Shown here: positions 21,046 to 50,031 of the stretch, piece after piece
Numbering within the stretch: the stretch's first letter is position 1
Layout: each line of letters starts with the position of its first letter
The notes under the pieces: generated by a model
What the model saw: only the letters and a program-made list of their open reading frames with translations
Database searches by the model: none
What the model was told of the DNA's origin: nothing
Origin: Holosporaceae bacterium UBA7879
GTDB taxonomy: Bacteria > Pseudomonadota > Alphaproteobacteria > UBA7879
Assembly: GCA_002500565.1 (NCBI GenBank)
Contig: DLRV01000011.1
Location: forward strand, 42,019 to 106,018
Direction of reading: 5' to 3'
DNA: 64,000 nucleotides
Translations under genes and position numbers: made by a program

Positions 21046-21555
21046 TCAATAAACCGGCAAACAGCCCTCATCGATCAACGTTCCCTCAGCATACAGCTTT
21101 GCCTCAGCATCGCGGCGTCTAACCAAGCCTTGCAGTTTTCGCCCTCTAGCTTTAACCCAACGATAGAATTCATTCACCACTTCATCATGCATGTCACGGT
21201 TCAGTTTTTGCCGCAGCGTTGAGCGTTGAAAAGCCATCCCGCCAACATTAAAAATAAAAGACAGTAAAGCTATTTCTTGCAAAATAGTTAACTCAACCTC
21301 AACCAATTGATCAAGTTGTTTTTTAACCCTAACCAAATCACGCCGCAGTAATTTCTCAGCCTTTTCTTTACTCAGGGGTTCTTCAATTTTTTCCCGTGGC
21401 CTAATCACATGGCCATAGCCAATCGTGATCAAACCAGCTGGGCAAAAGTATCGATACCGCCTGAATCCCTCAAACGGTAAAATAAATTTTGTTGCTTGGG
21501 TCAGCACATCACAATTAACATCGCCCAACACCACAAACTCTTTGTTAACAGTCAT
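21046..21555 (-). CDS. phage-type lysozyme (GH24 endolysin)
   Basis: 169 aa; GH24 catalytic region FEGFRRYRYFCPAGLITIGYGH (E...T.GYGH pattern of lambda R/T4 e-like lysozymes). Confidence 0.75.
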   Translation of the reverse strand: MTVNKEFVVLGDVNCDVLTQATKFILPFEGFRRYRYFCPAGLITIGYGHVIRPREKIEEPLSKEKAEKLLRRDLVRVKKQLDQLVEVELTILQEIALLSFIFNVGGMAFQRSTLRQKLNRDMHDEVVNEFYRWVKARGRKLQGLVRRRDAEAKLYAEGTLIDEGCLPVY

Positions 21556-21566
21556 CAGCGCCCTCT

Positions 21567-22037
21567 TTAAGATTTGCTTTTAGCGCGGCGTTGTTGCCTG
21601 AGAGCCCGCTGACCAAACCAAAAAGACATCACAGCTGCAAACAATGCTTGGTCTTCTTCATGCCAAGCCCGCATCAATGCTGTGCTGATCGCCATGTGAT
21701 CTGTCACAATTAGTAATGTTTTTACCTGTGCCCATTTAACGCTGGCGTACAAAATAAAAAACACATAGGTAATAACAGGCCGAACACTGGCTGCCAATGC
21801 ATCGACCCACTTAATTTTGGTTTGAGCAATTGGCCGGTAAATGCCTTGCGTTTCAACCACATCAATTAGATCCCGCATTTCTTGGGCGCGCATCCGATGA
21901 TTCAACTTCATCACCTCAATTTGCCGATCAAACATTTTCAGTTCGTGGCCTTTGTCTTGTTGGTCTTGAAAGTATTTGACAATATCTGGGAACACACTGC
22001 CCAGAAAACCTATAAACGATCCAAGAATTGTTAACAT
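21567..22037 (-). CDS. putative phage holin / membrane protein of lysis cassette
   Basis: 156 aa; hydrophobic segments at N-terminus and middle, charged C-terminus (RRAKSKS); 11 bp upstream of the lysozyme gene on the same strand. Confidence 0.4.
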   Translation of the reverse strand: MLTILGSFIGFLGSVFPDIVKYFQDQQDKGHELKMFDRQIEVMKLNHRMRAQEMRDLIDVVETQGIYRPIAQTKIKWVDALAASVRPVITYVFFILYASVKWAQVKTLLIVTDHMAISTALMRAWHEEDQALFAAVMSFWFGQRALRQQRRAKSKS

Positions 22038-22059
22038 TTTTTTTCTCCATATTTTGTTG

Positions 22060-22400
22060 TTTAATTAAATCCGTCATTCTGAGAGGATCTTTAATCCGCG
22101 TGAGAATCTCATCCATTCCCCCGTCATTGCGAAGGAGTGAAACGACTGTGGGAATCTCTTCCGCCTTTAACAAGACCCTCACGTCGAAATTTCATTTCTC
22201 CTCAGGGTGACGGGTAAATAGAAAAACGTCATTGCGAGGCGGAGCGCAGCTCCAACGTGGCAATCTCTTCTGCCTTCACTCCACAAGACCCTCACGTCGA
22301 AATTGCATTTCTCCTCAGGGTGACTGGTTTTGGTTTATACGTCATCATGAGGAGCTGCTTTGCAGCGACGTGATGATCTCTCTTAGACGCGAGAATCTCT
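22060..22400. repeat. large cluster of palindromic MITE-like repeat units
   Basis: at least 7 units (GTCATTCTGAG...GAGAATCTC, GTCATTGCGAGGCGGAGCG...TGGCAATCTC, CCTCAGGGTGACGGGT, GTCATCATGAGGAG...CGACGTGATGATCTC). Confidence 0.7.
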
Positions 22401-22424
22401 CTAATCTCCTTCAAATTCACCGCC

Positions 22425-22946
22425 CTACCGTGACTCCATTATCACCAAGCGCCCTTTGGTCTGCATTAAATCCGGCTGCCAGGTTAGCTGCAGATCTTGA
22501 ACCAACCCTTTCAGGCGCGGCTTATAACGAGCGCCACTGAAGGCCAACTCTGTTTCAAACCAGTTTTGAACCGGGTTTTGCATCCCAGGGATTTCTTCAC
22601 CATCCGCTGTGACAATCCGCAAACTGCCTTGCTGCCAAGGTCTGCTGGTCCAAACCTTGTTCCCGTCTCGCTTCAAATCGTCTCCACTTTCATACCAGCT
22701 GTGGCTCAAGGTTAAGTTAATCTCATCTCCTTTCTTCATGCTCAAAACCGGATCAGAGCGATTGGTTTGAAAATCAATCTCAACCTGGTACAAGGGTCGG
22801 CTTTGCACCGGTCCTACATAAACCCAATCGCCATCAATCGTTGGCTTCATTTGCCCCATCCCTTGCAAACGAATCTGTTCTGTATAGAGTGTAAAATTTT
22901 GCCGCCAGGCATTTAAATCAATGTGTTGCATTGGTATCTTCTCCAT
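22425..22946 (-). CDS. phage-associated hypothetical protein
   Basis: 173-aa ORF overlapping the 3' end of the portal gene on the same strand; no recognisable motif. Confidence 0.35.
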   Translation of the reverse strand: MEKIPMQHIDLNAWRQNFTLYTEQIRLQGMGQMKPTIDGDWVYVGPVQSRPLYQVEIDFQTNRSDPVLSMKKGDEINLTLSHSWYESGDDLKRDGNKVWTSRPWQQGSLRIVTADGEEIPGMQNPVQNWFETELAFSGARYKPRLKGLVQDLQLTWQPDLMQTKGRLVIMESR

Positions 22947-24141
22947 TTCTATTTATTGTTTGTTCTGAGTCCGTAACTGCTGATTTCTCCAGTGGTCCAT
23001 ATCCCACCGCTGCGCGTTTTTCATTGGTTGTGAGAAAGTCAGCTTTTTGGAGTCGTTCCCAAATGGATTCACGTCTAAACGTTAGCGCTGAAATTTTTTC
23101 GGCATCAAAGCTAAACCCTTCCGCATTCATCCCTGCCCAGGTTGAAAACTCGGCCATGATGCGTTGCAGTAAAGGAATGATCGTGTCTTCCCATAAGTGG
23201 AAGCGGGCTTCCTTATAATTGGCAAAAGTGGCATCGCCTGGCACGCCCACCAGCATGGGTGGCACGCCAAACGTTTGTGCCACTTCCCGTGCAGCCATTT
23301 GTTTACCGGTCAGAAAATCCATATCACGTGGGCTCATCCCCATTTCACGCCAATCCAAATCCCCTTCCAACACCATCATTTTGCCAGCTTGGCCTGTGCC
23401 ACCATACGCATCGTTCAGCTCTTGCCGTAACTGTTCGCGTTGTTCTTCGGTCAGGGGCAAGCTATGTTCAGCTTGTTTCATCACCAAAGCCCCAGTTGGC
23501 CGTCCGCCGTTATTCAACAGCGAGATATTGTGTTGGCCCATGGCATTGGCTTGATCAATGGCCAATGCCGCAGCTTGAAGTGGGCTCAGCCCATACCAAT
23601 CGTTGTGGGGGTGAAAAAACTTAATGTGCAGAATGTTCGAAGCGCCTGTCTCGGCATTCACAGGAATAATTCTTTTCCGTCCTTCCACTTCATACTGGAA
23701 CGCTTTCGGAATGCCATGGGGCCCGGGCACCACCGCAACCCGATCTGGACGCAAGGGATATAACTCCATTCGCCCTGTATCTGGGCAGGTATAGCGCTCT
23801 ATGTATGTATTCCCTGATAGCAGCAAATAGCTGGTCACTGTTTCTATAAAACTTGACCACGATTGGCTTGGATTGGGCTTGCTCAAAACTTTTTGCCAGT
23901 GCTTCTGTAATTTTGGACACCAGTTATTTGGTATCTGCCACACCACACTGGCAAGGTTATGGGCAATCACATTAATCGCGCGGTAGACAATGCTATTTTT
24001 GCCATAGCCCTCTTGGCATAAGTTCCAATAACTTTGCGACAGGTCACGGCTTGCCATACCGCTACGCACCGACAAAATAGCCGGCCTTGAGTTTGCACGC
24101 GTTTTTGTGCGTTTTGATTTATTCTGAAACCATTGAAACAT
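22918..24141 (-). CDS. phage portal protein, HK97/GTA family
   Basis: 407 aa; portal-family conserved stretches (YWNLCQEGYGKN, LLLSGNTYIERY, VLEGDLDWREMGMSPRDMDFL, FHLWEDTIIPL) as in HK97-type and RcGTA g3 portals. Confidence 0.75.
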   Translation of the reverse strand: MFQWFQNKSKRTKTRANSRPAILSVRSGMASRDLSQSYWNLCQEGYGKNSIVYRAINVIAHNLASVVWQIPNNWCPKLQKHWQKVLSKPNPSQSWSSFIETVTSYLLLSGNTYIERYTCPDTGRMELYPLRPDRVAVVPGPHGIPKAFQYEVEGRKRIIPVNAETGASNILHIKFFHPHNDWYGLSPLQAAALAIDQANAMGQHNISLLNNGGRPTGALVMKQAEHSLPLTEEQREQLRQELNDAYGGTGQAGKMMVLEGDLDWREMGMSPRDMDFLTGKQMAAREVAQTFGVPPMLVGVPGDATFANYKEARFHLWEDTIIPLLQRIMAEFSTWAGMNAEGFSFDAEKISALTFRRESIWERLQKADFLTTNEKRAAVGYGPLEKSAVTDSEQTINRNGEDTNATH

Positions 24142-25112: not shown

Positions 25113-28100
25113 TTATAATGCTGGTGTTTCATCATCAGAACCTAATAATGGTCTAGCATTCGGAAGTGAGGCAGGTCTGTCATCCGGATTGACATGTTTT
25201 GCACGTGGCACAGCTGACAAATCGACAGAAGGCTCTTTCTCAAACATTTTCACCAGTCCATGGCCTTGCTTAAGTTCATTGTCAACAAATCTTTGGAAAT
25301 TCTCTAATGCAGATTTTCTTGTTTTAGATGATCTTGGAGCGTCATCTTTAGATAGCACAGAAAGATTTACATAACCACTTCCTAGATCCAGACCTTCTGG
25401 CACTTGCCCATTATCTTTCAGTTCTATAAACCAATTATTAACTTGATTAATAAATTTATATTTTTTACCCGTATACTGTTGATGTATCGCATTAAGATCA
25501 ACACCTTTTACAGGTTTTACAGGCGGCAATGCATCACGCAGTCCACCAGCTGAGCGGCGGGCTGGGCTCATGACACGGTCACCAGCCGCTGCTGCTGCCG
25601 CAGCACCTTCTGCACCCTCTTCGCCATCATTAACACCAGCACGGAACTGAGCCAATTCAGTTGCAAATTCCTTAGCAGCAGCTTGATGCTTAGATGCCGC
25701 AGCGATTAGGCCTCTCATTAAATCAGCTAGTACGCCTACATCTTCAACACGGTCAACTTTGGCGTCTTTAATAGCTGTACCATACTGGCTTTCAGTAAAA
25801 ACTTTCACTGCAGCCCGCACAGCTGCTAGCATCGCTTCTTGGCCTTCTTCCGCTGCTACTTTTGCCGCCTCTGCCGTTGCAGCACGCTCTTCAGCCTGTT
25901 GCGCCGCTTGTATCTGCTGGCGCAAGTCTGCCGCTTGAGCTTCTTGAGCTTCTTGTGCCGCTCTTTGGGCTTCCTCAAGTTCTGCTACCTTATCTGCTTC
26001 TACTTCCGCTCTAGCTGCCGCAACCTCTGCCGCTTTAGCTTCTTGTGCATCAAGGGCATGTTGATGTAGTCGTTGTAATTCATTTTCAAGCTCAGCAGTT
26101 CGTTGCGTCAATTCAGCTCTCGCCGCTTCTGCTGCAGCGCGGGCTTCATTAGCTTGTTGTGCTGCTTCATTTGCTGCTTCTAGTTCATGTTGTAATCTTG
26201 CCAATTCTTGAGCTTGAGCTTGAGCCGCAGCATCTTGAGCACCTTGGTTAGCTGCAGCCGCTGCTGCTTGCTGTGCTTCCAAAGCTTCAAATCTGCGTTG
26301 AAGTTCATCTCTAGCTGCTTCTGCATCATGTGCACGACGGGTTGCATCTGCTAAGTTCTGCTCAGCCTCTGCTTTGGCTGCAGCTTCTTGTGCTTGGGCC
26401 TCCGCTGCTCTTTGAGCTTGTTCTGCCTGATCTGCTAGACGACCTTGCAATTCATTTCTCGCCGCTTCTGCTGCAGCGCGGGCTTCACGAGCCTGACGCG
26501 CTTCTTCAGTTGCTGCGTCTAGTTCACGTTGTAACCGTGCCAATTCAGCTGCTTGAGCTTGAGCCGCAGCATCTTGAGCACCTTGGTTAGCTGCAGCCGC
26601 TGCTGCTTGCGCATCCCGAAGTTGTTGTAACTCACCAGCAATTCTTTGCCGTTCAGCCTCTGCATCATCTGCTCGACGGGTTGCAGCTTCTAATTCTTGC
26701 TGATGCGCTGCTAAGTTCTGCTCAGCTTCTGCTTTGGCTTCAGTTGCTGCTGCAACATGCGCCTGAGCTGCTTCTTCAGCTTGTCTTACGGCTGCTGCTT
26801 GGGCCTCCGCTGCTCTTTGAGCTTGTTCTGCCTGATCTGCTAGACGACCTTGCAATTCAGCTCTCGCCGCTTCTGCTGCAGCGCGGGCTTCACGAGCCTG
26901 ACGCGCTTCTTCAGTTGCTGCGTCTAGTTGCTGACGTAACTGTACCAAAGCTTCTTGTTGAGCTTGAGCCGCAGCATCTTGAGCACCTTGGTTAGCTGCA
27001 GCCGCTACTGCTTGTTGCGCATCCCGAAGTTGTTGTAACTCACCAGCAATTCTTTGCTGTTCAGCCGCTGCCGCTTGTGCACGATGGTTAGCTTGATCTG
27101 CAGCATCACCTAACTGCTGCAAACGGTTTTGAACTGCTGCATCAACATCTGCTGGCAACGCAGCATTATCTGCAAGTCCAAGAACTCTTCTTGCAAGAGC
27201 TTGACTTGCTGCTCTGGCGGCATCACGTTCTCTTTCTGCAGCTTCCAACTCTTGCTGACGCGCTGCTACTTCTGCTCGCGCTTGGACCAAATTATCTTCT
27301 GCTTGACGAAGGTCTGCCGCTCTTTGCATTGCCGCTGCTTCATCCGCTGGTGCTTGCTGACCTTGTGGTACTAACGCTGCCAAAATACGACCTTTTTCCT
27401 GCTGTGCAGCATTTAAATCATTTTGCGCTTGCTGTAAGTCCTGCTCAGCTTGACGAAGCGCCTGAGCGCGAGCTACAGCCGCAGGTAAATTTGCAGGTAC
27501 TGTACCATTAACATCTTGCAATTCTTGTAAAAGCTGTCGTCTTCCAGCACGCAAGGCAGCCAATTCTATTTGCTCTTGGTTGTTCAATGGCTGATTAGGG
27601 GCATTTAACTGAGCTTGTGCCGCTGCCGCTGCTGCTACCGCCGCTGCCTCACGCTGCTGTGCCGCTTGCAAATCTAAACGCGCTTGTGCTTCTGCCGCTA
27701 CCGCCGCTGCCGCTGCTGCTGCCGCTTGTTGAGCCGCTTGTGCTTGACGTGCCACATCACCGCGTAGTTGATTTGCTGCCGCAACATGTGCGGCAACTGC
27801 CGGGTCTGGTTGAGCAGGTGGATTACCATTTACTGCTGCTGCTAACTGTTGTAAGCGCGCCCGTTCTGCCGCTTCTGCTTGTTGTGCTTGTTGTGCAGCT
27901 TGCCTTGCCGCTTGTAAATCTACACGCGCTTGTGCTGCTGCCGCAACTGCTGGCACTGGATTAGCAGGCACTTGTTGACCATTTAACACGTCTTCCACCT
28001 CTTGCAGATGAGCTTGTGCCGCTGCCACAGCAGCCTGGTTTCCACCCCCTGCTTGTGCTTGTTGCATTTGCTGAACATAATTAAGAGCATTTCCACTACT

Positions 28101-28316
28101 TAAAAACCGGATAAAATCACCTTTTTGGAGCATTAACCCCATATTGCGAGCAACGACAGGGATATACGCTGGTGGAATTTGTTGCGCAGGTACAACTTTT
28201 GCATTGTGATTACGAATGTAAGCCTCCGCTTGCTCAATTGTTGGCTTACCAGCAGACACTGATACGGCTAAAAAAGCTGTTGTAGCCAATACGCTAAGTT
28301 TAAATTTGTTAAACAT
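25113..28316 (-). CDS. secreted giant coiled-coil repeat protein, Ala/Gln/Glu-rich (eukaryote-like effector candidate)
   Basis: 1067 aa; signal peptide (LSVLATTAFLAVSVSA); ~700 aa of heptad-like A/Q/E/R-rich sequence with three near-identical ~115-130-aa tandem units; unique ~250-aa C-terminal domain. Confidence 0.6.
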   Translation of the reverse strand: MFNKFKLSVLATTAFLAVSVSAGKPTIEQAEAYIRNHNAKVVPAQQIPPAYIPVVARNMGLMLQKGDFIRFLSSGNALNYVQQMQQAQAGGGNQAAVAAAQAHLQEVEDVLNGQQVPANPVPAVAAAAQARVDLQAARQAAQQAQQAEAAERARLQQLAAAVNGNPPAQPDPAVAAHVAAANQLRGDVARQAQAAQQAAAAAAAAVAAEAQARLDLQAAQQREAAAVAAAAAAQAQLNAPNQPLNNQEQIELAALRAGRRQLLQELQDVNGTVPANLPAAVARAQALRQAEQDLQQAQNDLNAAQQEKGRILAALVPQGQQAPADEAAAMQRAADLRQAEDNLVQARAEVAARQQELEAAERERDAARAASQALARRVLGLADNAALPADVDAAVQNRLQQLGDAADQANHRAQAAAAEQQRIAGELQQLRDAQQAVAAAANQGAQDAAAQAQQEALVQLRQQLDAATEEARQAREARAAAEAARAELQGRLADQAEQAQRAAEAQAAAVRQAEEAAQAHVAAATEAKAEAEQNLAAHQQELEAATRRADDAEAERQRIAGELQQLRDAQAAAAAANQGAQDAAAQAQAAELARLQRELDAATEEARQAREARAAAEAARNELQGRLADQAEQAQRAAEAQAQEAAAKAEAEQNLADATRRAHDAEAARDELQRRFEALEAQQAAAAAANQGAQDAAAQAQAQELARLQHELEAANEAAQQANEARAAAEAARAELTQRTAELENELQRLHQHALDAQEAKAAEVAAARAEVEADKVAELEEAQRAAQEAQEAQAADLRQQIQAAQQAEERAATAEAAKVAAEEGQEAMLAAVRAAVKVFTESQYGTAIKDAKVDRVEDVGVLADLMRGLIAAASKHQAAAKEFATELAQFRAGVNDGEEGAEGAAAAAAAGDRVMSPARRSAGGLRDALPPVKPVKGVDLNAIHQQYTGKKYKFINQVNNWFIELKDNGQVPEGLDLGSGYVNLSVLSKDDAPRSSKTRKSALENFQRFVDNELKQGHGLVKMFEKEPSVDLSAVPRAKHVNPDDRPASLPNARPLLGSDDETPAL
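26100..27100. repeat. intragenic tandem DNA repeats (~345-405 bp units, 3 copies)
   Basis: e.g. GCAGCATCTTGAGCACCTTGGTTAGCTGCAGCCGCTGCTGCTTG recurs at ~26221, ~26566, ~26971. Confidence 0.7.
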
Positions 28317-29378: not shown

Positions 29379-30914
29379 TTAAGCCTTTGCAGATTCTTTT
29401 TCTTTGGCTTCATTGGCTTTCTTAAACTCAATGCTAAGCTTACCAATAGCATAGAACCAAACCACCATGATGGCAATCACAAAGATAAACAAGTATGGCG
29501 CGATTACATCGTATGGGTTCAAGGCTGATCCAGCAATGGTTGCAATCATCAAACTTTGAATCAACGCACCACCAGATTTACCCAAACGGCCACCAACCAC
29601 ATCAACGGCTGCCTTACCTTTAGATTTCAATTCATCAGAAAGTGGGATGTACGACATCTCTTTGGTTGCATCAAACAATGAGTACTTGGTTGATTTACTG
29701 AATACTTGGAAGAACAATCCAACATATACAGACAACATGAGTGGTGAGGCACCAAGCAATGTGTAGAGCCAAGTAAGAAGGTCTTCCGCCAAAATCGTGG
29801 TGAAGAAGATCGCCCCGGTTGTAACAATCATGATTGGTGTCAAGATTGCCGCAACAAACCAACCCCAAACACGGACAATGTTTTGACCGATCAACATAAA
29901 GATAATGGTCACAAATGCGTTTAGTACAGCGAACTGACCAAAGAAGCTTGATTTTGCTGCTTTGTCAGGGAAGAAAGAACTTACGCGTGATTTCCAGCTT
30001 ACCTCAATTAGATTCACAGAAACACCATATCCAACCACCAAGATCAAGATCAACATTAGGTACTTAGAAGACAGAATCAATTTCATGCTGTCACCCAATG
30101 ACATTTTTTCTTTTTTCTTCTTCGGTTTCACATCAGCTGGATCGTACAAACGAGGATCAGACATCACAGATGTATTGGTAAAGCGGTACAGGTACATAAA
30201 GACAAACGCGAACAAAATCACTGGAATCAGGTTCATCAACGTGTGAACATCCCCGGCGTTGTAACCAGAGATAACGATGGCTTCAGACAATGGTTTTGTC
30301 CATTGCATCACCCCACCAGCAAGCATACCACCAAAATTACCGATCAAACCAAACATCGCATAGTAACGTGTTGCTTCACTTACCCGCGTAATTTGGTTAG
30401 CAAACTGCCAGAAAAGAAGAGAAACAACAACACTGCCCCACAATTCAGCCATGGCGTAGTAAAGGGCATAGAACCATTTACCAAAGGTAATCACAACCCA
30501 GTAGAGTGGTGGAACAACCTGACCAACAGAGCGCAACGTTTCCATGTCTGCCATGAGGTAATCTCTAAATGGGTACAGAAGGAAACCCCATACTGATAGG
30601 AACACTACAAAGATCATCGTACAGGTGTAGAATAGCTTCTGACGCGATAAAGAGTTGCTCATTTTTGAGTAAAGAACAAAAAATAACGTTGCCAATGGCA
30701 ATGTAATCAGAAGTTTACAAATGTTAATCGCCGCGGCATCACCCATTTCAGAAAGGACGATCGCATCTTTACTGTTCCGCAAAACAGTGTAGTTGTATAG
30801 CGCGCAAAACATCATAAGCGCCATGGGTAAAAACTTCTTTACCTCAAAGCTATGGATAGGCCAGAAAATACCTCTCAGGCCGGAAAACTGTGGTTTTGTT
30901 TTAGTCACTGACAT
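29379..30914 (-). CDS. tlc: ATP/ADP translocase (nucleotide transporter, NTT family)
   Basis: 511 aa, 12 TM; N-terminal region FSGLRGIFWPIHSFEVKKFLPMALMMFCALYNYTVLRNSKDAIV is highly characteristic of Tlc/NTT transporters of Rickettsiales, Holosporales and Chlamydiae. Confidence 0.85.
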   Translation of the reverse strand: MSVTKTKPQFSGLRGIFWPIHSFEVKKFLPMALMMFCALYNYTVLRNSKDAIVLSEMGDAAAINICKLLITLPLATLFFVLYSKMSNSLSRQKLFYTCTMIFVVFLSVWGFLLYPFRDYLMADMETLRSVGQVVPPLYWVVITFGKWFYALYYAMAELWGSVVVSLLFWQFANQITRVSEATRYYAMFGLIGNFGGMLAGGVMQWTKPLSEAIVISGYNAGDVHTLMNLIPVILFAFVFMYLYRFTNTSVMSDPRLYDPADVKPKKKKEKMSLGDSMKLILSSKYLMLILILVVGYGVSVNLIEVSWKSRVSSFFPDKAAKSSFFGQFAVLNAFVTIIFMLIGQNIVRVWGWFVAAILTPIMIVTTGAIFFTTILAEDLLTWLYTLLGASPLMLSVYVGLFFQVFSKSTKYSLFDATKEMSYIPLSDELKSKGKAAVDVVGGRLGKSGGALIQSLMIATIAGSALNPYDVIAPYLFIFVIAIMVVWFYAIGKLSIEFKKANEAKEKESAKA

Positions 30915-39960: not shown

Positions 39961-42138
39961 TTATTTCAAATGCGGCCATTCCCTTTTACTTTTAGTGCTT
40001 TTATCGCGGCCATATCCTCGATCCATTTGTATGGCATGCTTCAACCTTCCTTCTGACATAAGAAAAGGGCTGTTTTTAATCATTTCTTGATACTCGGTAC
40101 TCTTTTCAACACGCGCTTTTAATGCGTCTAGGGTTATATTTTTGCCTTTTTCCGTTTTGTATTCGTCACACAATTTTTTTAACAAGGCCCACATTTTATT
40201 TAATTTATTCTGACGGTCTGTTCGTCCGGCTTGATATTTTTCACTGGATAGAAAAAATCCATTGTGAACTCTCAATTTATATTTTGCGCCCTTGTTTTTA
40301 TTAATGATTTTAACAGCTTCTATATTTGTTATATACTCACCCGTTTCTTTATAAACTTGATCAATTGTTGAAAAAATTTCAGCAATAACCTGTTGTTTTT
40401 TATGGTCACGATCATCTTGCGTTTCAATAAATTTTCTTAATTGACCTTGGTCTAATTTGTCTACTATCCATTTAATACGTTTAAACAGAGATTCATTTGT
40501 TAGAGAGGAGACGTCAACCTTACAAAAAAACAAAGATTTATTCTCACGCAGATATACGGATAGCCTATTTACAAGCTTATGAAGTGACATTTTCTTTTTC
40601 TTATTGTCTTTCCATATCTGTTCCATCGCTATCCATAGCTGCTTGATGTTTTCACCCTCATGCGCATCATCAAACAAACCAGGCTGGCGTTTAGTCTTTT
40701 TGGCTTCTAGGCTTTCTTTATCTGGATCTCCTTCATCAAGAGCTGATCCAGCAGAACGCCTTTTTGCTGTTTCTTTTTTACGCATGTCAGAGTTCATAGC
40801 AGCAGCCCCAGAAGCTGTCGCGCCTGCAGCAGCTGCCGCCGCACCATCTCCGTCACCGCTAAGATTAGCTTGCCCAAAAGCAGGCGGCACATCGCCATCA
40901 CTGCTATCCCCCTCATCTGATTCGTCTGACTCACTAGAGGACTGATCCTCATCCGTTTCCATACCACCACCGGGGCTCATGGCAGGGCTTGCCTGCCCAC
41001 TGTCCCCGTCAGCGTCACTATCACCACTCTCATCTGCATCAGAATCCGCTGCTTCAACTCCGCCTGCTTGGCCATCTTCTGGCATACCGCTAACAGCTGC
41101 TTGAACTTGTTGTGCCAAATCTCCATATCCGCGCTCACGCGCTTCTTTAGATCTGGCTTTTGTTACATCTCTCACGCCTACAGGGCTTAGGCTATCTTGG
41201 TCTTCTTGTTCCTCGTGTTCTTCTTGGTCATCTTCCCCATCATCTGCAGCGCCCTGCACCATTGCTTCAGCAAAATCTCCTTGCCCTGCGTGTTGTTGCA
41301 AAAAATTAACCAGTTGAGGTGGCGCATGCTCAACGTGCTCCACCTCCTTATACTGTTCAAAAAGAACCTTCTTTTGCTCTGCTGCTACTTCATCAGAAAT
41401 ACCATCTGGCCGATGCCCCCAATGCAATAAAACCGCTTTGATCAAGGGAATTATCTTAGACCGCGAGTACTTCTCTTGAAGAACAGTTACCAACTTCCAT
41501 GCATTTTGTTTTTCAAAACCAGTTGGCTCCAAACCATAGGCATTCATCTCAGCCACGTTATAAACATAGCTTTTAAGTAAATTGGGAAAGAGCCGTTTAT
41601 CTGCATTATTCAACACCTGCAAACCATTCATTTCTTCTATTTGCTCCCAAATTAAAGCACGAATATTGCGTGCGAAGATAATAAAAGATTGGCCCAAGAT
41701 AATATCCTCACCAGCGGGATAAAATCGCATCATCGACAACATGTTGGACACACTCACTAAAGCTGAGTTTATTTTATGTCTGCGCACATCTTCTGAATCA
41801 TGGTTACCCAAACCAATATAATATTCATCCGTCAAGCGACGCTTTAGTAAATTAAACACGGCTTGCATCGCTGCTATATTATGATCATTTACATCACCTA
41901 ATCCAGGCACACGATCAGCGGCTCTAAGGGAACACATTGCAATAAATCTTTTGAACGCCTTTGCAGCCTCTGAACGATCTACGGGGTTTTCTGGATGAAA
42001 TTTATTTTCATACGCTTGCACCAGCCCTGGACCATGTTCTTTATCCAGTAAATCCTGGCCTCTAATAACAGGTAAAACAGCCTTTATAGATGGCGTTAAT
42101 TGAAAAGCAACCAGCAAACAAGCAATAATTTTTTTCAT
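39961..42138 (-). CDS. secreted protein with central poly-acidic (D/E/S) region (effector candidate)
   Basis: 725 aa; signal peptide (IIACLLVAFQLTPSIKA); N-terminal ~300-aa domain with GLGDVNDHN...GLGNHD reminiscent of metallophosphoesterase motifs II/III; ~150-aa D/E/S/G-rich acidic tract; Lys-rich C-terminal domain. Confidence 0.4.
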   Translation of the reverse strand: MKKIIACLLVAFQLTPSIKAVLPVIRGQDLLDKEHGPGLVQAYENKFHPENPVDRSEAAKAFKRFIAMCSLRAADRVPGLGDVNDHNIAAMQAVFNLLKRRLTDEYYIGLGNHDSEDVRRHKINSALVSVSNMLSMMRFYPAGEDIILGQSFIIFARNIRALIWEQIEEMNGLQVLNNADKRLFPNLLKSYVYNVAEMNAYGLEPTGFEKQNAWKLVTVLQEKYSRSKIIPLIKAVLLHWGHRPDGISDEVAAEQKKVLFEQYKEVEHVEHAPPQLVNFLQQHAGQGDFAEAMVQGAADDGEDDQEEHEEQEDQDSLSPVGVRDVTKARSKEARERGYGDLAQQVQAAVSGMPEDGQAGGVEAADSDADESGDSDADGDSGQASPAMSPGGGMETDEDQSSSESDESDEGDSSDGDVPPAFGQANLSGDGDGAAAAAAGATASGAAAMNSDMRKKETAKRRSAGSALDEGDPDKESLEAKKTKRQPGLFDDAHEGENIKQLWIAMEQIWKDNKKKKMSLHKLVNRLSVYLRENKSLFFCKVDVSSLTNESLFKRIKWIVDKLDQGQLRKFIETQDDRDHKKQQVIAEIFSTIDQVYKETGEYITNIEAVKIINKNKGAKYKLRVHNGFFLSSEKYQAGRTDRQNKLNKMWALLKKLCDEYKTEKGKNITLDALKARVEKSTEYQEMIKNSPFLMSEGRLKHAIQMDRGYGRDKSTKSKREWPHLK

Positions 42139-42199: not shown

Positions 42200-42370
42200 A
42201 AAAACGTGTGATTAAAAACCAGCCATTGCGAGGCGGCGCGTAACTCCAACGTGGCAATTTCTTACCCCAAAAACAGTCATTGCGAGGCGGAGCGCACCTC
42301 CAACGTGGCAATCTCTCTTGCCACAAAAAACTCCGTCATCATGAGGAGTCCAGCGGCCGACGTGACTCTC
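42200..42370. repeat. palindromic MITE-like repeat units (3 units)
   Basis: two CCAGYCATTGCGAGGCGG(A/C)GCG...CCAACGTGGCAATYTC units and one GTCATCATGAGGAG...CGACGTGA unit. Confidence 0.7.
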
Positions 42371-44958: not shown

Positions 44959-46377
44959 CTAAATAGCAGCTGGTCTTAGCAGCCCCCTGTAACATTCTCC
45001 AAAAAGCTCCATCAAGCTTTCCAACTGATCAGCTGGTACATAAACCCTTTGCAAATTTGTAAAAAAATATTGTGGAAACATTATAAATCTTTCTGATACT
45101 GACAAACTTAAGTATAGAATTTGTAGGAATTTAGTCTCATCCAATAAACGAACCCCAACATGCGTCAATGCTGGCGCATATAGGTGCAGGACTTGTAGGG
45201 AGTAATTCATACTCAAAAATGCATTCCCAACACTCGTCAATGCTGGTACATAGAGATGCATAGTTTGTAGATCGCGGGGGCCACTCAGGACATTATGCCC
45301 ACAACGCGTTAATGCTGGCATATATAGATGCAAAGTTTGCAGATTGAGGTTGCTAGAAAAGAAATAATCCCCAATTGTTTGCACGCTCTCATCAGCATTG
45401 GTTAGTACCAAGTTACGCAGACGATTGGGGAGATCTGCTCTGCCCCGCATGGTAAACACTGGGCCCGCAGCATCAATATCTATAACAACTGTTGGTTGTG
45501 GACCCTCAGCATTTTCTGGCAATAAGCGATTGATATCATCTTTTAATCCAGCCAGCTGGCTGTGTTGAACAACCCAGTAAGAGTCTGTATCAATCGCTTC
45601 CGTTTCAGCGGTGATTTCTTGGTAGTTTGTATCAAGAAACGTCTGCAATCCATTGTGCCCACGTGGGTTCCAAACCCGATCACGGAAAGCTTGCATCCAC
45701 TCTTTTTTCTTGTCTTCAGTGGTATAGTAAACTTCATAGCCAAAAAACTGATGCTGCAATGCGGCTTTTTGCACAAACGTTAAATCTTGTGCATCCTCAC
45801 CCAACGCCTGCAGAATAAGCCTGTACATGTTCTCATGCTGCATGCTCTCACTTTTACTTGCAATGCTCATCGCCATCTCACTGTTGTTTTTTATGGCAAG
45901 AAGCTCATAGCTTCCCAGAGCAGCCTTTAAAATACCTTTTCTCTCTTCTGGTAGATAGCGACGAGATAAAACTTGTTTTAAATCGACTGAAATTCTCTCC
46001 AAGTGAAAAACAGGCAATCCCATATCAGGCAATGCCTTACCCGTTGGATCTTTAGGCCCACCACTCTCTTGATACAGAGCTTTCTTCAGGTGATGAATAC
46101 GTGCATCACCAACCATTCTTGTCATTTGTCTTGAAGCTTCAGCCAACCGCACTGCCGACGTAGGATCCAGAAAGGGCACGATACGATCAATAACCTCTTG
46201 TGGCAGATTCGCTAACGTTGGAGGAGAATCTGATGCTTGCGGCGATGCCGCTGCCGCAGCGGCAGGCTCAGTCTCTTCAGCTTCATCGTTTGGGCCTACG
46301 GCCTGCACCGAGGTGCTCATCATGCCAAGAACCAATGCTATGCCAAGCCATAGCTGTAAAATCTTTTTCATAATCAC
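44959..46377 (-). CDS. secreted leucine-rich-repeat protein (BspA/LRR_5-like; effector candidate)
   Basis: 472 aa; signal peptide (LQLWLGIALVLGMMSTSVQA); C-terminal ~22-aa repeats LQTLHLYMPALTRCGHNVLSGP / LQTMHLYVPALTSVGNAFLSMN / LQVLHLYAPALTHVGVRLLDET. Confidence 0.55.
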   Translation of the reverse strand: MIMKKILQLWLGIALVLGMMSTSVQAVGPNDEAEETEPAAAAAASPQASDSPPTLANLPQEVIDRIVPFLDPTSAVRLAEASRQMTRMVGDARIHHLKKALYQESGGPKDPTGKALPDMGLPVFHLERISVDLKQVLSRRYLPEERKGILKAALGSYELLAIKNNSEMAMSIASKSESMQHENMYRLILQALGEDAQDLTFVQKAALQHQFFGYEVYYTTEDKKKEWMQAFRDRVWNPRGHNGLQTFLDTNYQEITAETEAIDTDSYWVVQHSQLAGLKDDINRLLPENAEGPQPTVVIDIDAAGPVFTMRGRADLPNRLRNLVLTNADESVQTIGDYFFSSNLNLQTLHLYMPALTRCGHNVLSGPRDLQTMHLYVPALTSVGNAFLSMNYSLQVLHLYAPALTHVGVRLLDETKFLQILYLSLSVSERFIMFPQYFFTNLQRVYVPADQLESLMELFGECYRGLLRPAAI

Positions 46378-46509: not shown

Positions 46510-46875
46510 TCACACACATATTCCCCTAAATTCAACACGGTAACCAATCACATCGTTTTTAATGGTTGCCACCTCAATAGCAGCGCCAACAAGAAAGTGC
46601 ATTTGGCTCTCTTCAATATCCAAAACTGTATTAGACAGCTCCTCCAATCGCTCCAGAACTTCCTGAATTTGCAATGTATGCGCAACGTCACACCACACAG
46701 TTAAGTTAGCCTCTATGATTTTGTATCCCTCGTAATCACCTTTGCCAACAGTCGCCTGTTTCATTTCTAAAATTCCATAGGGGCGTTTTATTTTTTGTGG
46801 TACGTGTAAATAAACTGGAATTGGCAAACGCTCCGTTAAAACCTGCTTAAGTCTCGATAAAGTTTGCAACATCAT
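46510..46875 (-). CDS. phage/GTA head-tail joining (tail-completion, g8/DUF3168-like) protein
   Basis: 121 aa; position after g6/g7-like genes in an HK97/GTA-type head module. Confidence 0.4.
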   Translation of the reverse strand: MMLQTLSRLKQVLTERLPIPVYLHVPQKIKRPYGILEMKQATVGKGDYEGYKIIEANLTVWCDVAHTLQIQEVLERLEELSNTVLDIEESQMHFLVGAAIEVATIKNDVIGYRVEFRGICV

Positions 46876-47191
46876 ATGTTACCTCCTTCATCACAAAATA
46901 CAGCCAAGGGCTGGTCGCATCCTTTACGGGTTCTGAGGCCAACTCAAAAAACCGATCTTGCCATTTAACCAAATAGTCACTTTCCAATGGGTGCCCTGCG
47001 TCCATCCAAACCTTATAAAGCGCTTTCAGTTGCTTTTGATCAGCGCTATAGACCACACGTTCTTGACTCGGCCTAATGGCCCGAACCGCCGCCCATGAAT
47101 TAAAAACCGCTATCAGCTCTTGTCTACCATGGTCAACATGCACAGCTGTAATGGGCTCAACCAAATCAAAAGGCGTAATATGTATTTTCAT
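46847..47191 (-). CDS. phage/GTA head-tail adaptor (g7-like)
   Basis: 114 aa; size and position typical of head closure/adaptor protein downstream of gp6-like connector. Confidence 0.45.
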   Translation of the reverse strand: MKIHITPFDLVEPITAVHVDHGRQELIAVFNSWAAVRAIRPSQERVVYSADQKQLKALYKVWMDAGHPLESDYLVKWQDRFFELASEPVKDATSPWLYFVMKEVTYDVANFIET

Positions 47192-47796
47192 GCCACACCT
47201 CGCTTAATATAAGGCATCAGTAATCCCTTCAGCGCTGCATGGTCCAACCGCTCTCCACCATAATAAAAACTTTGGGCCAGCATCATAATCGCCATTTTCA
47301 AAGATTCCGGCACATCAGCTGGCGTTGGTCCATATCCAACCAATGCCTCAAGTTTTAAAACGTCCAAGGGGGCCATTTTTAAACTCACCCGGGTTCGCTC
47401 TCCCAAGGCACGTTGGTAAAGATCATCCAAGTTCACTGCATGTTCTTGGCCTTTGCTGATCCGCCATGCTGCATAAATATTTTGAATTGGCGCGGTGGGT
47501 ACAGAAAACTCCTTGTCCACAAGGGTTTGTTGTCCTTGCTCAACCGCATTCATTCCCTGCATCTTCGCGCGCCCAGCACATGTGACAAAAACGCGTTGGT
47601 TGATAAGCCGCAACTGTAATTTTGCTTCAATATTTTCCTGTGCAGCTTTTAATACTTTTCCTAAAGCTTCATCGGCATGGTAATGAGTCACACGCATATA
47701 ATTTTTAAATTCATAAAGTGGAACCGCTGACATGGATGGGGGGTCAATAATTTTAATCATGATTATTCCTTTCATAAAAAAAAGCGCCGCCAACAA
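47188..47796 (-). CDS. phage gp6-like head-tail connector protein (g6-like)
   Basis: 202-aa ORF (true start probably internal, MIKIIDPP); LEEAKxHLRVD-type pattern (LYEFKNYMRVTHYHADEALGKVLKAAQENIE) of gp6-like connector family. Confidence 0.5.
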   Translation of the reverse strand: MLAALFFMKGIIMIKIIDPPSMSAVPLYEFKNYMRVTHYHADEALGKVLKAAQENIEAKLQLRLINQRVFVTCAGRAKMQGMNAVEQGQQTLVDKEFSVPTAPIQNIYAAWRISKGQEHAVNLDDLYQRALGERTRVSLKMAPLDVLKLEALVGYGPTPADVPESLKMAIMMLAQSFYYGGERLDHAALKGLLMPYIKRGVA

Positions 47797-47801
47797 AAAA
47801 A

Positions 47802-47816
47802 CCAGGCAAAACCTGG
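47802..47816 (-). terminator. rho-independent terminator candidate
   Basis: CCAGGCAAAACCTGG hairpin with A7 upstream on plus (T-run on minus), 40 bp after capsid-gene stop. Confidence 0.45.
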
Positions 47817-47855: not shown

Positions 47856-49481
47856 TTAAGCTTGGAAATTCAACAGTTTCAAAGCATCCGGATTAACAAC
47901 CGCTCCTCCTGTTCGTTTTGTGATATAAAACTCAACGTGGGGTTTAGAACTGTATGGATCGCGTAAAATATGCATTCCACTGCGGTCAACAATTTGGTAG
48001 GCCTCCTTAAAGTTTCCAAAGGCAATCGCAACTCCGGCTTGTCCACCTTGTAAGGCTGGCATTTCATCACACACCTCAACCGGATACCCAAGCAAGGTTG
48101 AAACCGCTCCACCCAGTCCTGGCTGCCAGAGGTAATGCCCAGTTGCAGGGTCCTTCAACTTGCGCACCGCGGCTACAGCGGAACGTGACATCAACCAGCA
48201 TGCACCTTGTAAATATTTGGTTTGTAAGCTTTGCATCACATCAATCAGCAAATCAGCTGGTTTCTGCTCTGGAAAAGCTCCATCCACACCCGAATTCAAT
48301 GTGCCAATTTCTTGGCCGTTGTTCGCATTTAGCTCACCACGTGCATGGGTTAAAAACCCTGAAGGTTTATTATTCCCATCTCCATTCACAAACGCCGCTG
48401 TTTCCATCCGCGCCATCCGATCAGCCACACACTGAACCAACCAGTTTTCAACATCAACCTTGGCATCATCCAGCAACTTCTGGGTTGCCCGTGGTTTGGC
48501 ATAAACTTCGTGCACTGCAATGCGCAGCTTTTTAATCTCGCCGGCATCTGTTTCCGCCCGATCGTTTTCTTCAGCTGTCCAGCCTGCATCCGCCAACGAA
48601 CCTGTCAGCAACACATCCACAGCACTGGTGGAAATTTGCATTGTCCGTGCCAGTTTTCTTAAGGGCGACAACGCTTCAATATTCCCCAGCAGGCGGTCAT
48701 GCAAAATTTCAGGAATCAGGTGCCCGCCGTGCTCCTCATCCGTTGTTGTGAGGCCCTTCTGTCGCCACCCCTGCCCCGAGCGCATGAAATTGGCAAAACC
48801 ATGCGCTTTTTCTTCCATGTTTGTTAACGCTGTCGCTGGTTTTTCGTTTGTTTGATTTGTGATCATCTTTTTCTCCTTTTGTTGATCAGTTAATTGATTG
48901 GTTGTTTCAAGCACTTGGTGTTTAACCGTTTGAATTTGCGCTTGTTGATGAGCCGGGAACGTAACCAGAGAAATCTCTAAAAGATTGACCCTTTCAATGG
49001 TAAATCCGCCGGCTTCATTGGGTTGATGCTTCTCGCTGATAAAACCAATAGACAGGCCATCAATTTCACCTTCTTTGAGCAAGGCATAAACTTCACGGGC
49101 CTTGGCCACTTGTAAAAGCAACTTCCCTGTCACCTTCAGCCCATGACTATCCTCTTCAATGCTCAGCCATTGCCCGATAGGGGTTTCTTTATCATGTTGC
49201 CACAATAATTTGGGCCGCTTTTGCTTATGGACATATGCTTGTAAAGACTGGCTAAAAGCCCCCGGCAAGATCACGTCTTGATCCTGATCTGGCTCATTGA
49301 AAACACTGGCATAGCCAGTAAAAATCCCCTCTTCTGAAACTGATTTCAAAGTCAGGGGTTGCACAGCATGGCTGCGCTTGAAGTGCGACATATGTCTCTC
49401 CTTGGTTGTTAAATTGAATTTTGATTGGGTGAAAAAATACTTAAGTAAATTAGCTATCAATAAGCTTGTAGACAGGCACAA
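47856..49481 (-). CDS. HK97-family prohead protease fused to HK97-family major capsid protein
   Basis: 541-aa single ORF; N-terminal ~170 aa has prohead-protease (S78) features (VFNEPDQDQDVILPGAF, HGLKVTGKL, ISLVTFPAHQQAQI); remaining ~370 aa is HK97-fold major capsid (FANFMRSGQ, LIPEILHDRLL, GEIKKLRIAVHEVYAKPRATQKLLDDAKVDVENWL); possible internal start MITNQTNEK. Confidence 0.7.
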   Translation of the reverse strand: MCLSTSLLIANLLKYFFTQSKFNLTTKERHMSHFKRSHAVQPLTLKSVSEEGIFTGYASVFNEPDQDQDVILPGAFSQSLQAYVHKQKRPKLLWQHDKETPIGQWLSIEEDSHGLKVTGKLLLQVAKAREVYALLKEGEIDGLSIGFISEKHQPNEAGGFTIERVNLLEISLVTFPAHQQAQIQTVKHQVLETTNQLTDQQKEKKMITNQTNEKPATALTNMEEKAHGFANFMRSGQGWRQKGLTTTDEEHGGHLIPEILHDRLLGNIEALSPLRKLARTMQISTSAVDVLLTGSLADAGWTAEENDRAETDAGEIKKLRIAVHEVYAKPRATQKLLDDAKVDVENWLVQCVADRMARMETAAFVNGDGNNKPSGFLTHARGELNANNGQEIGTLNSGVDGAFPEQKPADLLIDVMQSLQTKYLQGACWLMSRSAVAAVRKLKDPATGHYLWQPGLGGAVSTLLGYPVEVCDEMPALQGGQAGVAIAFGNFKEAYQIVDRSGMHILRDPYSSKPHVEFYITKRTGGAVVNPDALKLLNFQA

Positions 49482-49731
49482 AATTTTTAAGTAGCATTAT
49501 AAGAAAAACAGGGATTTGACAGATGAAAAATACTCCAGCTTATTCTTTTCTATCTGCCGCCATTCATTCTTACTATAAAACCAGCTTAGCATATGTTAAG
49601 GCAGCGTCAGCACTGTTTAGAGCAAAAGGTTCAATTCATCATTGGCTAGCAATAGATGGTGATGACAAAATAAAATCAATGCTCACCACTTTTAACTGCC
49701 CTTTCCCTCAATAATATTAAGGAGTAAAATA

Positions 49732-50031
49732 ATGGAGAAATATTTTTTAATAAAGAAACAACATATTGTCCTATTTTTTGCAATATCTACTCTAAGCCAA
49801 TGTTTGGCCTCAACCACACTATCTAAAGTACAAGCTTATGGGTGTGCGGTTAACTATGAAATGAAAGCTCAAACATTTTCTGATAGATCAGGAAAAACGA
49901 TACAAATTAAAACCGATGATATAGCCAAAAAACAATGTCCAGATGTTTGCTCACCTTATGGTTCCTGGAACGGACAATGGGGAGATAACTGGGGTGAAAA
50001 TACTTTTTGCTGCTGTTCTAGGCCTGCTTAA
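49732..50031 (+). CDS. small Cys-rich lipoprotein (hypothetical)
   Basis: 99 aa; signal peptide with lipobox LSQC; C-terminal CPDVCSPYGSWNGQWGDNWGENTFCCCS. Confidence 0.4.
   Translation: MEKYFLIKKQHIVLFFAISTLSQCLASTTLSKVQAYGCAVNYEMKAQTFSDRSGKTIQIKTDDIAKKQCPDVCSPYGSWNGQWGDNWGENTFCCCSRPA

Follow-up and report, generated by a model that had tools for sequence, protein, structure and literature searches.

A prohead protease–major capsid fusion gene with a predicted nested start among scattered gene transfer agent-like head genes of an intracellular alphaproteobacterium

We analysed a 64-kb stretch (the window) of a contig from Holosporaceae bacterium UBA7879 (DLRV01000011.1, positions 42,019 to 106,018), in which a prohead protease and an HK97-fold major capsid protein (MCP), encoded by the separate genes g4 and g5 in the Rhodobacter capsulatus gene transfer agent (RcGTA), are joined in a single gene. 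Positions 47856..49481 of the window hold exactly one open reading frame (ORF), which lies on the minus strand and runs for 541 aa from the first possible TTG (49481). No ORF is present on the plus strand over the same interval, where the frame is full of stops. The initial annotation had described one uninterrupted 541-codon frame carrying a protease-like and an HK97 capsid domain, and domain searches recovered precisely this arrangement, a peptidase S78 domain followed by Phage_capsid. The true start is likely the ATG at 49391, giving a protein of 511 aa, since AAGGAG lies 6 nt upstream, homologues begin at this point and the corresponding NCBI protein has 511 aa. That entry, MAP23989.1 ('hypothetical protein CMM87_00430 [Rickettsiales bacterium]', from a marine metagenome-assembled genome, MAG), is identical to the window protein, and the exact protein is present on five public contigs. 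Residue numbers refer to the 511-aa protein unless 541-aa numbering is indicated; coordinates are collected in Table 1, and related loci are designated by L numbers.

The N-terminal part matched Pfam Peptidase_S78 (PF04586) over aa 46-193 in 541-aa numbering (E=1.6e-35, 123.1 bits, cut-off 21), as well as the NCBIfam equivalog TIGR01543, proheadase_HK97 (1.7e-39, 135.2 bits, cut-off 59). An alignment with HK97 gp4 (from NC_002167), at 34% identity, placed His66 and Ser114 opposite gp4 His65 and Ser114, which we take to be the catalytic residues of that enzyme. Both residues are invariant in 80 out of 80 fused homologues. The protease part was modelled by AlphaFold as a confident globular domain of mixed strands and helices, with no coiled coil, and a PDB sequence search with this part alone gave only chance-level matches. 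The N-terminal part is, then, a real S78 protease and not merely a delta domain, and it is predicted to be proteolytically active. The window protein lacks the C-terminal extension that free proteases carry (HK97 gp4; L006 and L010, whose proteases have 183-184 aa). We detected no second protease near the portal gene: the 173-aa ORF at 22425-22946 has no Pfam or PHROG match, and tblastn searches with protease queries found the fusion only.

The C-terminal part matched Pfam Phage_capsid (PF05065) over aa 252-539 in 541-aa numbering (E=8.9e-75, 252 bits) and NCBIfam TIGR01554, major_cap_HK97 (6.9e-92, 308.5 bits, cut-off 27.5). Its closest solved capsid by sequence is the RcGTA capsid Rcc01687 (6TB9/6TBA; E=1.7e-62). 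The AlphaFold (AF2) model, built on 30 fused homologues, contains two confident domains, at about aa 19-158 and 226-511, and a single short helix in the low-confidence stretch between them (159-225). When the model was compared with the PDB using Foldseek, the best fold matches were RcGTA capsid chains (6TB9), with E=1e-30 and a TM-score, normalised to the target, of 0.81-0.85. Lys212 does not vary among 30 fused proteins. It aligned with Lys103/Ser104 of HK97 gp5, the maturation cleavage site of that protein, whose position the alignment confirmed; cleavage after Lys212 would be the equivalent maturation step here. Fused PHROG profiles matched the full length, as exemplified by phrog_2263, in which aa 55-539 (541-aa numbering) aligned with positions 42-543 of a 551-position profile. 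Domain searches and model thus describe a single ORF with an N-terminal protease, a central scaffold or linker segment and a C-terminal MCP.

Table 1. Features of the fusion gene and of the gene transfer agent-like head loci (positions within the window)
Feature	Position	Strand	Basis or remarks
Full-length fusion ORF: prohead protease, delta-like linker and HK97-fold major capsid protein	47856..49391	-	511 aa, 56.3 kDa
Shine-Dalgarno AAGGAG of the full-length start	49398..49403	-	6 nt before ATG 49391; duplex energy -8.5 kcal/mol
Peptidase S78 (HK97 gp4-type) protease domain, aa 19-158	48918..49337	-	Profiles, alignment, confident predicted fold
Putative catalytic His66	49194-49196	-	Aligned with HK97 gp4 His65
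Putative catalytic Ser114	49050-49052	-	Aligned with HK97 gp4 Ser114
Variable linker or shortened delta (scaffold-like) region, aa 159-212	48756..48917	-	Low model confidence (pLDDT), one helix at aa 192-205; ends at Lys212
Internal Shine-Dalgarno AAGGAG, in frame as Lys172-Glu173	48873..48878	-	Nucleotide-identical in all five clade members
Nested in-frame ORF from Met176 (ATG 48866-48864), predicted capsid-only product	47856..48866	-	336 aa, 36.5 kDa; predicted from conservation
Predicted mature capsid protein Gly213-Ala511, HK97 fold	47859..48755	-	299 aa, 32.3 kDa; sequence, model, Foldseek
Sigma-70-like promoter match TTAACA-16-TATAGT	49572..49599	-	10/12 consensus match only; ~180 nt upstream of the start
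Terminator-like hairpin with T-run	47802..47816	-	40 nt past the fusion stop codon
Head-tail adaptor (gp6 / RcGTA g6-like)	47188..47796	-	TIGR02215, 1.1e-15, above cut-off; phrog_442/40
Head completion or stopper-like protein, weak match	46847..47191	-	Pfam Phage_HCP, 9.5e-4, below cut-off; same position in related loci
Tail-terminator-like protein, weak match	46510..46875	-	phrog_176, 5.8e-4; same position in related loci
Second phage/GTA-derived locus: portal and three genes downstream	21046-24141	-	The three genes span 21046..22946
GTA/HK97-type portal protein	22918..24141	-	Phage_portal, 2.1e-76; 24 kb from the fusion
173-aa ORF overlapping the end of the portal gene	22425-22946	-	No family match
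phrog_6637-like protein, 156 aa	21567-22037	-	54% identical to a late-cluster gene of L003
Phage lysozyme, 169 aa	21046-21555	-	Downstream of the portal gene

The same unbroken frame was found in independent assemblies from other samples, at protein identities of 94% (L002), 78% (L100/L101), 67% (L102) and 64% (L103); the DNA of this clade was obtained through exact-protein look-ups. Relative to L002, the ratio of non-synonymous to synonymous substitution rates (dN/dS) was 0.09 for the protease, 0.19 for the linker and 0.016 for the capsid, and the synonymous distances (dS) to the other three clade members, 1.8-2.5, are saturated. The genuine fusion entertained by the initial annotation is thus borne out, as relatives at 64-94% identity retain an S78 protease with its His and Ser, joined to the capsid, and purifying selection on the gene is strong. 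Of the 121 protein-database sequences examined, 80 were fused, with full coverage. As for a stop codon between the two parts in related genomes, which that annotation had named as a sign against a fusion, the clade at 64-94% identity is fused throughout, whereas more distant relatives, at ~50% identity, are truly split. With split genes in distant relatives and fused ones in near relatives, the fusion is therefore lineage-specific and not an error.

Seventy out of 72 classifiable loci in GTDB species representatives were split; the two fused ones belong to a Candidatus Tisiphia genome and a Rickettsiaceae MAG. All 76 loci on viral contigs were split and none was fused. Tblastn searches for a close phage with the fusion retrieved, as best phage matches, split gene pairs throughout, and a scan of metagenome contigs with a single protein yielded nine loci, none from the window's clade. 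Fitch parsimony on trees of the capsid part required at least five changes between the fused and split states (median 8), compared with ~34 for shuffled labels. The state is stable within clades, yet it changed repeatedly, by fusion or fission, at least five times. In at least 19 split loci (among L011-L090 from GTDB, L009 and L010), g4 and g5 lie in the same frame with a single stop codon between them, often TGA or TAA, so that a single point mutation suffices for fusion. Same-frame arrangements accounted for 30 of the 73 split loci in a first classification, close to the expected one third. Loss of the g4 stop codon in an adjacent split gene pair is the most likely origin of the fusion. As a separate observation, low-level readthrough at the same-frame split loci would yield the same fusion product.

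The in-frame Met (MITNQTNEK) that the initial annotation placed at the junction, proposing that the capsid might be initiated there, is Met176, and that proposal gains from a nucleotide-invariant Shine-Dalgarno (SD) motif in front of the codon. In the codon alignment of the clade, AAGGAG followed by 6-9 nt and ATG is identical in five out of five sequences, despite a variable, indel-bearing linker. Within the window, the two starts are alike, each consisting of AAGGAG, 6 nt and ATG. The junction run is one of only eight invariant runs of at least 6 nt in the ORF, and it alone has non-conserved flanks, with an amino acid identity of 0.05 compared to 0.36-0.86 for the flanks of the other runs. 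Furthermore, AAG and GAG are mostly minority codons in the genes of the clade (26-57% and 26-43%, respectively), and the same codon is kept in all five sequences at just 15% of invariant residues. Since synonymous sites are saturated across the clade, the junction SD and ATG are kept by selection and are not a recent relic. The predicted energy of pairing between the internal SD and the anti-SD is -8.7 kcal/mol, equal to that of the gene's own start, and this SD ranks among the top three of the 34-53 in-frame start-like codons in each clade member.

Other fused lineages have different linkers, and a SD-like motif with an ATG is fairly clear within the linkers of L003, L004/5, L016 and L184. 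A SD as strong as that of the gene's own start preceded eight out of 15 linker ATGs and two out of 42 other internal ATGs (Fisher p=1.3e-4, or 0.004 when counted conservatively) across the five lineages compared (the window, L003, L004, L184 and L185, with L015 and L016 left out). In split relatives, the SD and ATG of g5 occupy the position corresponding to the fusion junction. Sequence conservation and SD strength thus describe a conserved in-frame internal initiation signal of the kind seen in nested two-product genes, and ribosomes probably initiate at Met176 as well as at the gene's own start.

On balance, we favour the interpretation that the locus carries a conserved, functional g4-g5 fusion that acts as a nested two-product gene within a scattered, domesticated RcGTA-like head set of an intracellular alphaproteobacterium. 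One mRNA with two equally good ribosome-binding sites would give two in-frame products, a 56-kDa protease-linker-capsid protein and a 36.5-kDa capsid-only protein starting at Met176, and the two may co-assemble into procapsids. The covalently attached protease would be carried inside without the C-terminal targeting tail used by free HK97 gp4, as the N-terminus of an HK97-fold capsid protein faces inward. Once assembly is complete, a cut by the protease past Lys212 would release the protease together with the linker, and a mature capsid protein of 32 kDa would remain. The stoichiometry of protease to capsid would follow from how often each of the two starts is used, as in herpesvirus UL26/UL26.5. 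Given that the C-terminal extension is absent and the delta region is short, the covalent link may replace tail-mediated targeting; and given that the SD and ATG of g5 are retained inside the fusion, a single stop-codon mutation could switch the gene between the split and fused states. Whether all three elements of this scheme hold together (the start ratio setting protease to capsid, the tether in place of a targeting tail, and the one-mutation toggle) is, in our estimation, an even call.

Several points weigh against a nested gene in a working head set. The SD signal in the linker is weak or ambiguous in L185 and L015. The delta region that follows Met176 is only ~37 aa long in the window's clade, compared to ~75-108 aa in split relatives and HK97, and a capsid-only product may therefore assemble poorly alone. 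The phylogeny rests on bootstrapped neighbour-joining trees only. Neither tblastn with L003, L004 and L006 genes as queries nor Pfam and PHROG profiles revealed terminase or tail genes (g2, g9-g15) within the 64 kb of the window. Finally, phage fusions of the Nocturne116 ORF18 type (see below) make virions with no second product reported, so an obligate 1:1 arrangement can work.

The last of these points, together with the short delta remnant that an internal product would carry, lends some plausibility to the strongest competing explanation, in which the gene makes the fusion only, with one protease per capsid subunit, and the junction SD and Met are kept for the Lys-Glu of a cleavage site, for translational pausing that lets the domains fold or for mRNA structure. 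A need for Lys-Glu in the protein would not explain why all five clade members have AAG and GAG, mostly minority codons, although synonymous sites are saturated. Moreover, the spacing between SD and ATG stays at 6-9 nt, suited to initiation, despite nearby indels, and independent fused lineages with unlike linkers also keep a SD-like motif and an ATG. We therefore consider an obligate fusion possible but distinctly less probable than a nested two-product gene.

Beyond the two ribosome-binding sites, the gene is flanked by a promoter match and a terminator-like hairpin, and the HK97 record likewise annotates a putative terminator after the gp5 capsid gene. A 13-nt perfect palindrome, CTGGCTATGCCAG, was also observed at 49304-49320 (minus strand), in codons 25-29, where it could form a 5-bp stem with a TAT loop followed by a T-rich stretch. 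It is the longest nucleotide-invariant run over the five clade members, was flagged by the terminator scan and codes for an invariant G-Y-A-S motif; other lineages have the same residues with different, non-pairing codons. A regulatory role for this hairpin was considered, but these different codons speak against it, and the model leaves no place for a terminator within the ORF.

The RcGTA-like head set in the window comprises homologues of the g3 portal, g4, g5 and the g6-g8 connectors, although the matches for the stopper and the terminator are weak. These genes are divided between the fusion locus and the portal locus, whereas in relatives the portal gene lies directly upstream of g4 and g5. 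L009 encodes a terminase, portal, 159-aa protease, 374-aa capsid and connectors, and L006 a portal, 184-aa protease and 403-aa capsid. In L004/5 and L184, the portal gene is directly upstream of the fused gene, and L004/5 has a further series of genes downstream. Gene order is common to the window and its 94% relative. The surrounding genes are chromosomal housekeeping genes (holB, tmk, PBP5, recJ, infB, nusA and pgk), and no integrase was found in the 64-kb window. The locus agrees with the scattered, head-biased gene transfer agent (GTA) gene sets reported in Holosporaceae and Rickettsiales endosymbionts (PMC9254644, PMC10732058), neither of which reports mentions the fusion. Scattered clusters are usual in these lineages (PMC9254644), and the GTA-like cluster may extend beyond the window. 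Particles that package and transfer random host DNA would be the product of a working GTA; transmission electron microscopy (TEM) of Holosporaceae symbionts saw no particles (George et al., PMC9254644).

These TEM results, the division of the head genes between two loci and the lack, in the 64-kb window, of terminase, tail tube, tape measure and baseplate genes would all suit a real fusion that makes no DNA-transferring particles, either because the head serves as a domesticated particle in a non-GTA role or because the locus is a slowly dying prophage remnant. We regard this as unlikely in view of the very strong purifying selection on protease and capsid, the gene order kept with the 94% relative and the full head-tail clusters, including terminase, owned by relatives; the missing genes may lie elsewhere in the genome, as is usual in Rickettsiales and Holosporaceae (PMC9254644). 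A sequencing or assembly error, or a recent inactivating loss of the stop codon that left a pseudogene (the decay product of the initial annotation), would need only a single codon change and could appeal to the split state of most relatives, but it is rejected by the same frame in five independent assemblies from different samples, the identical protein on five contigs, a dN/dS of 0.016-0.09, the invariant catalytic residues and at least 80 fused clusters in public data. Likewise refuted is the suggestion that the N-terminal ~170 aa are just the delta or scaffold domain of the capsid, which has their position in front of the capsid domain in its favour and nothing further, against S78-family profile scores far above their cut-offs, a gp4 alignment that locates the catalytic His and Ser and a confident globular model.

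How does this gene compare with known systems? HK97 has the same protease family with catalytic His and Ser, a delta-type scaffold fused to the capsid and an aligned Lys at the cleavage site. Its gp4 is reportedly a free protein with a C-terminal tail of ~50 aa that targets it into the prohead; the window protein has no such tail and carries a covalent link in its place. RcGTA provides the closest solved capsid by both sequence and fold, has the same portal, adaptor, stopper and terminator neighbours and is likewise chromosomal, without phage replication or integration genes. In contrast to its separate g4 and g5, the window has one ORF with a shortened delta region, and at least two loci share out the genes of the cluster.

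Phage lambda C/Nu3 is a nested protease-scaffold gene. As in this gene and in the herpesviruses, one frame would give two products with a common C-terminus, with the protease entering the procapsid as part of the long form and the short one making up the structural bulk; the short product is a prediction in the present case. The shared part is a separate scaffold protein in those two systems, whereas here it is the capsid protein itself. In herpesviruses, where UL26/UL26.5 encode nested in-frame protease-scaffold and scaffold forms (PMC11565193), the short form comes from its own transcript, whereas the second product of the window gene would use an internal ribosome-binding site.

Fusions as such are well known in phages. 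The initial annotation had pointed to separate protease and capsid genes in HK97 and RcGTA; most relatives are split as well, but the rarity it implied was overstated. ORF18 of Lactococcus phage Nocturne116 is a protease-scaffold-MCP polyprotein cleaved at Arg242/Ser243 (PMC13595954). Like the window protein, it has an N-terminal prohead protease, a central scaffold-like segment and a C-terminal HK97-fold capsid, and its mature capsid begins after a basic residue, as predicted here for Lys212/Gly213. The two are likened by architecture and not by sequence relationship: Nocturne116 is a lytic Firmicute phage with a separate vertex protein and no nested second start reported, whereas the window gene lies in an RcGTA-like chromosomal cluster and has a conserved internal SD and ATG. 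Protease-MCP fusions also occur in several actinophage clusters (bioRxiv 10.1101/2020.01.10.891226) and in R. capsulatus RcC phages (PMC8601537). Single genes for protease and MCP, plus scaffold, are called common in small-genome siphoviruses, which parallels the reduced endosymbiont genomes considered here, but these phage fusions are described at the annotation level only.

The NCBIfam model NF045541, 'prohead protease/major capsid protein fusion protein', describes the same architecture, yet the window protein is no member of the family, as it scored 41.5 bits against a cut-off of 525 and matched over the protease region only. Since this model is not matched at full length, the window gene represents an independent fusion in a different capsid lineage, that of the RcGTA type. 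The Mycofy1 capsid chain 9LW6 (543 aa, with ~250 N-terminal residues unmodelled) is a possible candidate for a solved fusion, although its N-terminus has no sequence match to the S78 domain.

The source of the window is an obligate intracellular alphaproteobacterium. This lifestyle is supported by a TLC ATP/ADP translocase at 29379-30914 (minus strand; E=2.9e-156), a hallmark of energy parasitism. Several further genes were noted around the head loci. Directly downstream of the head genes, 44959-46377 (minus strand) encodes a secreted-looking protein of 472 aa with weak F-box and BspA-type leucine-rich repeat matches, which resembles the eukaryote-like effector candidates typical of amoeba and protist symbionts. 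Just upstream of the fusion gene, 49732-50031 (plus strand) encodes a Cys-rich, secreted-looking protein of 99 aa, a short stretch of which matches the MVL mannan-binding repeat (E=2e-6). A type VI secretion cluster also lies near the GTA head genes (58720-63649, minus strand); it includes a VgrG-like protein with Phage_GPD / gp5 domains and neighbours that are TssG- and TssF-like by gene order with L002, where the arrangement is kept. A 1,067-aa protein (25113-28316, minus strand), with a signal-peptide-like N-terminus, a very long, repetitive, coiled-coil-like region rich in Ala, Gln and Glu and no Pfam match, accounts for a local rise in GC to 0.53 and a strong AT skew. A 725-aa protein (39961-42138, minus strand) has a long low-complexity centre rich in Asp, Glu, Ser and Gly and no clear family, and its gene adjoins an intergenic 54-bp tandem repeat of 2.1 copies (42215-42329) that yields spurious overlapping ORFs.

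For a capsid to assemble, the maturation protease must reach the interior of the shell, and in a suitable quantity. Three ways of achieving this are known: HK97 has a free protease with a targeting tail, herpesviruses and lambda fuse the protease to a separate scaffold and make nested long and short forms, and small phages encode full protease-scaffold-capsid polyproteins. If confirmed, the locus described here would merge the polyprotein with the nested forms, the old capsid start being kept as a nested initiation site; to our knowledge, it would be the first UL26/UL26.5-type strategy on the capsid protein itself, in a domesticated GTA. The fusion being already known from phages, what is new is the GTA and endosymbiont setting, the recurrent switching between split and fused states and the conserved, putative nested start; the gene is not a new kind of system, nor does it open a long-standing question.

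Through this analysis, MAP23989.1, listed as a 'hypothetical protein', receives a functional name, as do many database entries like it, and annotators are cautioned that such fused ORFs are not frameshift errors. Among the GTA-like head genes of obligate intracellular bacteria, a single mutation would separate the split state from the fused one, and the change between them has occurred repeatedly. If the nested gene is real, stop-codon toggling would explain the at least five independent switches in the GTA-like clusters of intracellular alphaproteobacteria.

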